The position numbers were made by a program, and so were the translations under genes. Of a stretch of DNA of 64,000 nucleotides, positions 3,200 through 4,604 are shown in pieces. Origin of the DNA: Vicugna vicugna. Taxonomy: Eukaryota. The stretch spans positions 1 to 64,000 of the forward strand of contig MU057801.1 of NCBI GenBank assembly GCA_013265495.1, read 5' to 3'. Under the pieces are notes generated by a model. It had not been told where the DNA came from. It was given only the letters and a program-made list of their open reading frames with translations, and did no database searches. Position 1 is the stretch's first letter; each line of letters opens with the position of its first letter.

Positions 3200-4604
3200 G
3201 GTGCTGGTTGGGTTCCAGGCGGAATGTTGGGGTGTCCCCGGGGGCTTGTTGTGGCTGGCGGAGCCACGGCAACTGGGCAGAGCCCTGGGTGGGTCAGTGC
3301 CATGGAGGGGCTGCTGTCCTCTGTGGAGCTTGGCTTCGGGCTGATCCTTAGGTCGCTGAATGCGGTCCTGGTGGTGCTGCTGCCCAAAGGCCTGTGTTCC
3401 CAGCTCATGTTCCAGAGCCTCCCCTGGGAGACAGCGTTGAGTCCGCCTGTCCTCACCTTATTGCTCAGTATTTTATTTACTTTCCGACTTATTCAGTCTG
3501 TTACAAGTCAAGTTAATAGAAGACGTGAAAAGCAACTGGCAAAAACACTGGCTGCACAGATCCAAGAGAAGTGCCACCTCATTGACCAGCTTTATGTGGC
3601 TAAACAGGAGTGTGCCAGGGTGGAGACAACTCTAAAGGATGCCAGGCTAGGGAAGGAGCCAGTAAATACACCATGCCTCGCTGACACCTACAGAAAGCTG
3701 ATGACGGCCAACCTGAGCTTGAGGAAGGAAATCAGTTTTCTCGTCCAAGAACTGAAGAGAGTGCGACCCCTGCAGTCTATACGAGAAGAGATGGCGGAGA
3801 TGCTAAAGGTGCTCAAGTTCCTGGAGGAGGTCACGAGAATCAGCACATCACAAGGGGCTTTTACACACCAACTAGGGGACCGAGCACTGAGTCCTGATGG
3901 CCCCCCTCCCAGGAGTGGGCCCTCGTGTTAAAGCCGTGCTGTGCCTTCCCCTCCACTCAGGCCTCCCAAGCAGCCGGGCTACATTCACTCAGTCAGGTCT
4001 CCACCTGAGCTGCACCGAGGCCAGTGGATGGAGGGCAGGCCCCTCCTCTGGACCAGAGTTCCTCCAGCTTTGCCAGTGAGCACAGCCGTGAGCTCCTTCA
4101 TGGTCAACATCTCTCATCTAAATTCCCAGAACGCACCACGAAGCATGGGGCTTTTTTAATATTCAGCCAATGTTTGGATTCTCTCTTATTAGTTGTGAAA
4201 GAGATGTTGTAATTGAGACTGATCTTCTACTTAGTTAGAATCTATATTAAGCCTCATTTCTCAAGACAGTTTGGGTAACTATTATATATCAGCCATGTAA
4301 GTGAAGTGTATATATAGGTATTCTGTGTACTAATATCACATTATAATTTGAAAATGTATGCAGTTTGTCAATATAAACTTTTGGGTGGCCAAAGCATTTA
4401 TTTCTAGAGTTTAATTTTGAAGTCCTAAGTTTAAGTCAAAGAGCGTTTATTTTACCTGAGTATGTATATAGTTTTAAAAAAAATAGATGGACTCTTTTTA
4501 AGATGAAGTTAAACTGTACTCTTATAAGAAACTTCTATCATTTAAGTTTTATATTCTTCTATAACAATATCCACAGTAAAAAAAATTTGATAAATTAAAA
4601 AAAT
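3200..4604 (+). pseudogene. Processed (intronless) retrocopy of MIA2/cTAGE5 (CTAGE family), internally shortened; retrogene versus pseudogene status unresolved
   Basis: Continuous cTAGE5-like protein with no introns. A GC-rich leader precedes the ATG. cTAGE5 similarity continues past the stop (PSC*SRAVPSPP vs PSSETRAFLSPP; PPLDQ vs NPLDHQ in another frame). An AT-rich 3'UTR-like stretch ends in an A-rich remnant at ~4578-4604 with ATTAAA at 4594-4599. Confidence 0.85.
3302..3931 (+). CDS. cTAGE5/MIA2-like protein, 209 aa: short N-terminus, TM helix, N-terminal part of coiled coil 1, short Pro-rich tail (an in-frame upstream ATG at 3194 gives 245 aa)
   Basis: Kozak GCCATGG. Motifs collinear with cTAGE5 as recalled: GL.L..L..V...LP.G; PWE plus hydrophobic TM; SV.S....REK.LA..L...I.EK..L; VE..LKDA...KE; T..KL...N..L..EI..L..ELK; E.MA...K....LE; SP.GP. 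Homology is clear, expression is unknown. Confidence 0.55.
   Translation: MEGLLSSVELGFGLILRSLNAVLVVLLPKGLCSQLMFQSLPWETALSPPVLTLLLSILFTFRLIQSVTSQVNRRREKQLAKTLAAQIQEKCHLIDQLYVAKQECARVETTLKDARLGKEPVNTPCLADTYRKLMTANLSLRKEISFLVQELKRVRPLQSIREEMAEMLKVLKFLEEVTRISTSQGAFTHQLGDRALSPDGPPPRSGPSC

Follow-up and report, generated by a model that had tools for sequence, protein, structure and literature searches.

Primate CTAGE retrogenes (CTAGE1, 4, 6, 8, 9, and 15) are intronless, multi-copy descendants of cTAGE5 and are close to full length (~750-780 amino acids [aa]). HAL1 ("half-L1") elements are non-autonomous L1 derivatives with open reading frame (ORF) 1 and without ORF2, and the SVA-mediated copies of AMAC1, a handful in number, represent gene duplication by retrotransposon 3' transduction. 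In the present study, we analyzed a 209-codon ORF, referred to herein as mini-cTAGE, near the beginning of a 64,000-nucleotide (nt) stretch of Vicugna vicugna DNA (GenBank assembly GCA_013265495.1, contig MU057801.1, positions 1 to 64,000 of the forward strand; hereafter, the window). We consider it probable that this ORF is a young copy of a gene carried as cargo by an L1-derived unit of ~5.4 kb that was amplified in camelids, that the gene is old and its frame was kept open in the source lineage while the copies decay neutrally, and that its predicted product would be a coiled-coil protein of the endoplasmic reticulum (ER).

Mini-cTAGE resembles the primate CTAGE family in being an intronless, multi-copy descendant of cTAGE5. 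However, it is ~210 aa in length, has a conserved tail of its own, belongs to a clade separate from MIA2, and rides on an L1-derived unit. The likeness to cTAGE5/MIA2 extends from Met1 through the signal anchor and transmembrane (TM) segment to the first ~135 residues of the first coiled coil (coil1), with two hydrophobic segments followed by long helices. In contrast to the ~800 aa of cTAGE5/MIA2, mini-cTAGE has 209 aa, is intronless, has neither the second coiled coil (coil2) nor the proline-rich domain, and ends in its own Pro/Gly tail. The head of the unit is similar to HAL1 in that it has an L1 5' untranslated region (5'UTR) and ORF1 without ORF2 domains, is multi-copy, shares its 5' terminus with L1, and also occurs in gene-free versions. 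It differs from HAL1 in that ORF1 is broken in 11 of 11 units and in two gene-free elements (L066 and L067), and in that a host-derived coding gene is located downstream. As in the SVA/AMAC1 case, a small whole gene downstream of a retroelement was copied along, and target-site duplications flank the mini-cTAGE composite. However, at least 63 near-full-length copies of the gene and at least 31 copies with the complete spacer that separates gene and L1 are present, versus a handful; moreover, the L1 of the unit ends within its 3'UTR, and the carried ORF stayed open in the propagating lineage.

The individual components, namely, retrogenes, L1 transduction, and half-L1 elements, have been known. 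The presence of a host gene at dozens of copies through an ORF2-less L1, with its frame kept, is an unusual combination. We found no literature on this gene family or on an L1-borne cTAGE gene in a limited literature set from which supplements were excluded. The available part of a paper on the transposable elements of Camelus (PMC8605555) makes no mention of chimeric, HAL1, or ORF1 elements.

The dispersed unit of ~5.4 kb consists of an L1 head, a spacer of ~1 kb, the mini-cTAGE gene of ~1.2 kb, and ~0.2 kb leading to a polyadenylation signal. Its parts in the window are as follows:

1-1100, forward strand: decayed ORF1 region of the L1 head, recognized from colinearity with other units and from Pfam domains.
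1141-2108, forward strand: 3'-terminal pieces of L1 without a reverse transcriptase or endonuclease domain, with A-runs at 1456-1474 and ~2095-2108, ending within the L1 3'UTR.
2109-3150, forward strand: low-copy spacer, a carried-along genomic flank between the L1 head and the gene, with a (CA)n microsatellite at ~2404-2432.
3151-3301, forward strand: GC-rich leader of the mini-cTAGE gene; an ATG at 3180 is out of frame with the ORF, and one at 3194 is in frame with it.
3302-3931, forward strand: mini-cTAGE ORF of 209 codons plus TAA; the encoded protein has two hydrophobic segments near its N terminus, then the first half of coil1, and finally a short Pro/Gly tail.
3932-4400, forward strand: 3'UTR of the ~1.2-kb gene unit, with AATATAAA at 4370-4377; homology to the older copy L063 ends at ~4375.
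4401-4605, forward strand: stretch between the gene unit and the 3' end shared by the copies of the mobile unit, terminating in A-rich sequence at 4597-4603; where other copies have AATAAA, the window copy carries a mutated version.

The boundaries of the unit were established from its other copies. In each of the 19 other copies for which flanks were available, homology breaks off at window positions ~4602-4620, and the 5' ends are variable. A common 5' boundary ~4.0 kb upstream of the ATG was found in 7 of 11 retrieved upstream regions, the other 4 being truncated or interrupted. Other copies end in AATAAA, an A-run, and then a target-site duplication, and in three or more full-length copies, duplications of 11-17 bp surround the entire composite. 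At the family level, the features of an L1-mobilized composite (target-site duplications, an A-rich tail, a series of 5' truncations, and a fixed 3' end) are all present. Given the flanking target-site duplications and the large number of 5'-truncated copies, the unit was evidently mobilized by the L1 machinery. Window positions 1-3302 are colinear with the upstream part of nine other full units; the start of the 5'UTR is absent from the window because the contig begins ~740 bp inside the unit. The first-pass annotation of this DNA, which was made from the sequence alone, had regarded the L1s as shredded neighbors of the ORF, and this interpretation has to be abandoned: the L1 pieces are the head of the same mobile unit.

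The head has the make-up of a HAL1-like element in that an L1 5'UTR and ORF1 are present and the enzymatic domains of ORF2 are absent. Window positions 189-662 match the Pfam domain Tnp_22_trimer, and the equivalent piece of another copy matches Transposase_22 and Tnp_22_dsRBD. RVT and Exo_endo_phos domains gave no matches in 14 translated pieces of the unit head. An ORF1 that is intact in some copies, which would also be expected of a HAL1-like element, was not found; no ORF1 piece of 200 aa or longer occurs in the 11 units, L066, and L067 (13 elements). L066 (C6437:4761400-4765000) and L067 (C7803:1263425-1267025) are ORF2-less L1 elements without the cTAGE gene; they are ~2.85-3.0 kb in length, belong to a multi-copy family, and consist of a 5'UTR, a decayed ORF1, and 3' pieces. 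The 5' terminus of the unit is common to 39 of 39 other scored repeats, from 1722 candidates.

Copy number differs along the unit. Window positions 1480-2095 are a very high-copy repeat with 6053 first-look candidates, mostly at unrelated loci, whereas the adjoining spacer gave 187 first-look candidates, and 31 of the 40 scored cover its full 1 kb. The last ~600 bp of the spacer are also present in copies within a tandem array on contig C2580 and are absent from L063, an older, diverged, and L1-free copy (48% aa identity). L063 shares only ~1.2 kb with the unit, from window position ~3178 to ~4375, which corresponds to the size of the original gene transcript. In the leader, 35 distinct gap events were counted among the copies in 161 bp.

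We propose the following origin as the simplest one. An ORF2-less L1 derivative ("half-L1"-like, with a 5'UTR, ORF1, and 3' pieces; ~2.85 kb) would have inserted upstream of a mini-cTAGE gene that was already present, at a distance of ~1 kb. Transcription driven by the promoter in the L1 5'UTR may then have read through to the signal ~0.2 kb past the gene in a 3'-transduction type of event, and the L1 ORF2 protein, supplied in trans, would have reverse-transcribed these readthrough RNAs into new sites. Every full-length copy would bring the promoter along and could, in turn, seed more copies.

Tandem arrays with a period of ~5.29 kb were observed on contig C2580 (L064; C2580:42000-48000) and on the small contigs C868, C6368, and C9603. 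Each 5.29-kb array unit contains a decayed cTAGE-like copy (~40% aa identity, with TGA stops) and an L1 ORF1-like piece. We considered whether these arrays were built from the 5.4-kb unit and rejected this; only unit positions 3328-4885 are common to both, and the L1-like piece is not colinear. The source locus may be related to an array of the C2580 type by DNA-level duplication.

The ORF itself runs on the forward strand from the ATG at 3302, in the context GCCATGG, to a TAA ending at 3931, and contains no internal stop in its 209 codons. The stop-free frame exceeds the ORF (3173-3931, 252 codons) and includes the in-frame ATG at 3194. Positions 3141-3301 show many insertions and deletions (indels) between copies, and the ATG at 3302 is aligned with Met1 of the cTAGE5-type MIA2 isoform; 3302 is, therefore, the likely start codon. 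The predicted protein has two hydrophobic segments, at residues ~7-33 and ~43-71. In an AlphaFold2 model, long helices span residues 48-115 and 123-183 and the tail is disordered (mean predicted local distance difference test score, 63). Pfam and PDB sequence searches with the protein returned no match above the threshold.

A full HMMER scan gave 139 matches at E<=0.001, among which the proteins named MIA2 or cTAGE5, from a raccoon dog, crocodilians, a turtle, and fishes, are the long relatives. A word-based search found no longer relatives, whereas the full HMMER scan did recover them. BLASTP against isoform X4 of raccoon-dog MIA2 (806 aa) matched residues 1-186 of the ORF to MIA2 residues 1-195 (E 2e-21), and 31% of the residues were identical in an alignment of 196 columns. 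Homology to the signal anchor/TM segment and coil1, as required of a member of the MIA/cTAGE (TANGO1-like) family, is present; the kinship with the N terminus of cTAGE5/MIA2 is real, statistically supported, and beyond a likeness of motifs. The parent gene MIA2 of this genome is multi-exon (contig C10971). The parental exon for residues ~22-66 (L065) lies between a splice acceptor (AG|) and a splice donor (|GTAAGT); the ORF is continuous across both junctions, as expected of a processed retrogene. No DNA-level similarity of the ORF to the parental MIA2 exon is left. These results support the descent of the ORF from a processed, intronless copy of a cTAGE5-type transcript.

In cTAGE5, coil2 is the TANGO1-binding part and the proline-rich domain is the Sec23-binding part. 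According to the accessible part of a study on cTAGE5 (PMC4164946), coil1 comprises residues 61-300 and binds Sec12, coil2 comprises residues 301-650, and the proline-rich domain comprises residues 651-804. When the limits of the BLASTP alignment are read against this domain map, the ORF retains the membrane anchor and roughly the N-terminal half of coil1 (~135 residues), with the remainder of cTAGE5 gone. No coil2 was found, as the BLASTP alignment ends at MIA2 residue 195, and tblastn with full MIA2 against window positions 2100-4700 gave nothing significant past this residue. A C-terminal proline-rich domain with Sec23-binding PPP motifs was also not found; the tail comprises only ~25 residues. 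Across species, the family tail reads ..SPDGPFPRSGP.., and the PPP of the window copy is a private F-to-P change. The Pro/Gly tail has no significant match to any single place in MIA2. An origin from MIA2 residues ~516-540 (tblastn E 0.012) was dropped because a profile search did not support it; the best E of the tail profile against 94 long relatives was 0.62.

Most of what the first-pass annotation had read from the letters was borne out by these searches: an intact 209-codon ORF with a GCCATGG start and no stop, the absence of introns (the ORF crosses two intron positions of multi-exon MIA2), the kinship with cTAGE5/MIA2, the retention of the TM segment and the start of coil1 as far as MIA2 residue 195, and the lack of coil2 and the proline-rich domain. 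However, it had also described one retained Sec23-type PPP motif, and this does not hold, given the family GPFP and a tail that is unmatched in MIA2. We infer that the product would be a coiled coil anchored in the ER membrane, in which a portion of the Sec12-binding coil1 is retained and the TANGO1- and Sec23-binding parts are missing.

A six-frame search of the 2.03-Gb genome gave 451 candidates, of which 150 were scored, and at least 154 protein-level matches to the ORF are present. Sixty-three copies in which almost the complete ORF is represented were retrieved and aligned. In 13 of them, the ORF is fully intact, with an ATG, a TAA, no net frameshift, and a length of 205-210 codons; the copies on C45 and C112 are among these 13, have common flanks, and may be one locus. 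Beyond these 13, a few copies are open with a changed start or stop, and the rest have stops or frameshifts. Relatives in the databases include predicted proteins of Camelus (69% identity), a fox (Vulpes) protein of 210 aa, which the NCBI pipeline names "cTAGE family member 9", and a bat protein of 226 aa. In a quick maximum likelihood tree with MIA2 as the outgroup, 50 copies from this genome and 2 Camelus-type proteins formed one clade (support 100), and the fox, bat, and other sequences were placed outside it. The ORF length (~210 aa) and C-terminal tail are common to the fox, bat, and camelid proteins. Because the fox and bat share the length and tail and the copies analyzed here form one clade with Camelus, the truncated ~210-aa gene is older than its amplification, and the amplification itself is lineage-specific. 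The deep divergence from MIA2 accrued in the old ~210-aa gene lineage shared with the fox and bat, and not at the window locus.

Copies L043 and L044 (C5308:414724-415350 and 425184-425810) are ~10 kb apart, and both have lost the stop codon by a TAA-to-CAA change, resulting in open frames of 355 aa. A related copy is located on C7813.

Selection was assessed using pairwise Nei-Gojobori (NG86) ratios of non-synonymous to synonymous substitution rates (dN/dS) and polarity-free counts of variants. Indels present in four or more copies numbered 0 in the 630-bp ORF and 11 in 340 bp of adjoining flanks (7 with overlaps merged). Based on the flanks, 13-20 were expected in the ORF (Poisson P = 1e-9 to 2e-6), and ~6-7 were still expected when only the 3-4 clearest clade-defining flank events were counted. 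Stop-changing variants in three or more copies were also depleted (3 of 275 versus 10.2 expected, P = 0.008). In contrast, singleton stop-changing variants were not significantly reduced (10 of 355 versus 13.1 expected), and singleton indels were near the flank rate (45 in the 630-bp ORF, versus 14 in 179 bp and 21 in 161 bp of the flanks). Distinct indel events amounted to 87 per kb in the ORF versus 123-217 per kb in the flanks. A per-copy count against the window reference (2.3 indels per kb in the ORF versus 11-19 in the flanks) was set aside, since it counts shared events repeatedly and overstates the contrast; the claim of frame retention is based on deep shared indels only. Among the 11 units, the cTAGE ORF is intact in 7, whereas L1 ORF1 is broken in every one. 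Since deep indels and shared stops are depleted while singleton indels and stops are near neutral, we concluded that the lineage that seeds the copies kept its frame open by selection and that the copies decay neutrally after insertion.

The same data bear on the explanation that all copies, including the source, are neutral pseudogenes whose open frames are chance survivors. The weak dN/dS signal, a substitution divergence that is equal in the ORF and flanks, and the broken state of most copies are compatible with this explanation. However, it does not account for the absence of deep indels from 630 bp, the deficit in shared stop codons, or the conservation of ORF length and tail in the fox, bat, and camelids, and we regard it as extremely improbable.

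A short (GA)n run at window positions 3756-3761 (ORF nt 455-460) is an indel hotspot, with +2, -2, and -4 bp changes in 12 copies. These changes were considered as the mark of a broken, yet spreading subfamily, and this was rejected: the copies that carry them occur at scattered places in the tree, in line with (GA)n slippage. At codon 194 (window positions 3881-3883, CGA), a CGA-to-TGA stop occurs in six copies from different clades (L002, L008, L013, L037, L050, and L059), which fits recurrent CpG deamination.

Several observations weigh against the reading of the ORF as the frame-maintained cargo of an L1-derived unit, and they concern the structure of the unit, the strength of constraint, the window copy, and the RNA libraries. 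Regarding structure, the 5' end of the window copy lies beyond the contig start; its own target-site duplication is out of view, and only the A-rich 3' end is visible. Moreover, the L1 3'UTR stops early at a short A-run in the unit and extends further in L066 and L067. The arrangement expected of transduction, in which the retroelement ends at its natural 3' end and poly(A) and is followed by flank, was not found; the event is not a textbook 3' transduction, and "transduction-like" is the appropriate term. The early L1 3' end suggests premature polyadenylation or a deletion at the source locus.

Regarding constraint, breakage or another alteration was found in 50 of the 63 near-full-length copies. 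Pairwise dN/dS among the copies of this genome was 0.57 for intact copies and 0.64 for broken copies versus 0.77-0.81 for shifted-frame controls; it was, thus, below the controls and still indicates weak constraint. The ratio of non-synonymous to synonymous variants was 2.09 for shared variants and 2.83 for singletons, a difference that was not significant (p = 0.09), and substitution divergence in the ORF (0.138) was no lower than that in the flanks (0.101 and 0.131). Amino-acid constraint is weak. Weak constraint together with a strict frame would be in keeping with a scaffold of the coiled-coil/TM type, with a reproductive gene that evolves rapidly, or with a passenger ORF for which translation itself is of importance to the element.

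The last of these options can be framed in two ways. The element may use the captured host gene fragment as its own ORF, with selection on translatability (which might, for example, bring the RNA to ER-bound ribosomes or to the ORF2 protein) and not on amino acids. We consider this to be quite unlikely, although it would explain the preserved frame, the near-neutral dN/dS, and the dead ORF1 together. Alternatively, the ORF may have been kept open for a need of the mobile unit, for example, through a membrane-anchored product that places the RNA for capture by the ORF2 protein in trans. A frame preserved in the propagating lineage with almost no amino-acid constraint, next to an ORF1 left to decay in 11 of 11 units, is in line with such a need. 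However, ORF length and the tail are conserved outside the camelid clade, which points to a host function before capture, and ORF2-less L1 copies without the gene have spread too; we find this second version highly doubtful.

The window copy belongs to the youngest clade of the tree and has no private amino-acid changes. Its ORF is 97.9% identical at the DNA level to L002 and 97.1% identical to L048, both of which are broken copies. Because the copy is young, an intact frame is expected here without selection at the locus. A further point against the reading is that the window ORF is a clean mosaic of two parents, which either gene conversion or misassembly at the contig end may have generated. 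The sequence of ORF nt 1 to ~450 is that of L002 (C10822), and over its last ~200 nt, the ORF matches L048 (C850, 1.30 Mb) exactly or almost exactly, while these two copies are 3-8% apart throughout. The stop of L002 sits in the L048-like part of the window ORF, and the frameshifts of L048 sit in the L002-like part.

The intact ORF of the window may, hence, be partly an artifact, namely, an assembly chimera of paralogous reads beside the contig end. The two-part match, with each parent broken in the half that is not shared, and a contig that starts inside the unit are in line with such a chimera. On the other hand, the DNA that follows the unit at its 3' side is unique, which shows that an insertion exists at this locus; real gene conversion yields the same pattern; and a mosaic look was found in only 3 of 1225 copy pairs, so that the assembly did not generally mix copies. 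We consider a chimera to be possible, but rather unlikely. With 12 other fully intact copies, the reading of the family as L1-borne cargo is independent of the window locus.

Among 24 listed sequencing runs, 5 that are recorded as RNA contain a portion of the stretch. In all four RNA-seq runs that were mapped (two studies, reproductive-system samples), contigs at least 95% alike were found over ~3144-4448; the first-pass annotation had called for an expression check, and this result applies at the family level. Contigs at least 99% alike numbered 42, 36, 26, and 16 in the four runs. The contigs begin in the 3144-3230 bin in all four runs and reach the 4275-4361 or 4362-4448 bin; bins without coverage (upstream of 3144 in two runs and past ~4448 in all four) are no guide to the start or end of a transcript. 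Close family members are present in reproductive-tissue RNA libraries. At window position 4087, every RNA contig differs from the window letter; therefore, at least that part of the RNA came from other copies or other individuals. As a point against the reading, short contigs of a multi-copy family cannot name a locus, strand, or start site, and DNA carry-over is possible. The DNA runs contained 58-72% of the sampled words of the stretch, from which no inference on species range is drawn.

The first-pass annotation had proposed that the window locus is itself a functional host retrogene, once or still under selection, and that it serves as a lineage- or germline-specific modulator of COPII export. 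The intact ORF with a good start context, the preservation of the family frame in the source lineage, and the presence of RNA-library contigs at least 99% alike agree with this proposal. However, a copy that lacks private amino-acid changes and is 97-98% identical to two broken copies is too recent to have decayed much, singleton stops and indels appear in the copies at an approximately neutral rate, and all of the RNA contigs differ from the window at 4087. We now consider function at this locus to be improbable. Selection on the frame, as originally suggested, stands for the copy-producing lineage, in which deep indels and shared stops are depleted, and not for the window locus. A long-decaying locus with a surviving frame also gives way to a different history, since the divergence arose in the old ~210-aa lineage shared with the fox and bat and the copy is among the youngest of at least 63. 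What the original proposal had set against itself, a recent duplicate of an already annotated CTAGE-like member, is largely what was found, with predicted proteins of Camelus and Vulpes as the relatives.

On the side of function, since the predicted protein is without coil2 and the proline-rich domain, it could hold Sec12 off ER exit sites, or it could otherwise modulate cTAGE5 in reproductive tissue.

Viewed as a single retrogene under selection, the finding falls short of the original proposal; viewed as an L1-carried family with a maintained frame, it is moderately interesting. The family offers a natural experiment on whether the translation of a passenger ORF aids trans-mobilization by L1 and on the origin of multi-copy cancer/testis-type genes outside primates. 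For annotation, dozens of camelid models named "uncharacterized protein" or "cTAGE family member" are probably copies of the unit, and an intact ORF beside "shredded L1s" can be the cargo of that L1.

Downstream of the unit, window positions 6294-8327 are very GC-rich, and both strands carry extended frames without stops, which reach 325 codons and are rich in G, P, R, and A. This region looks like a CpG island or the promoter of a neighboring gene.

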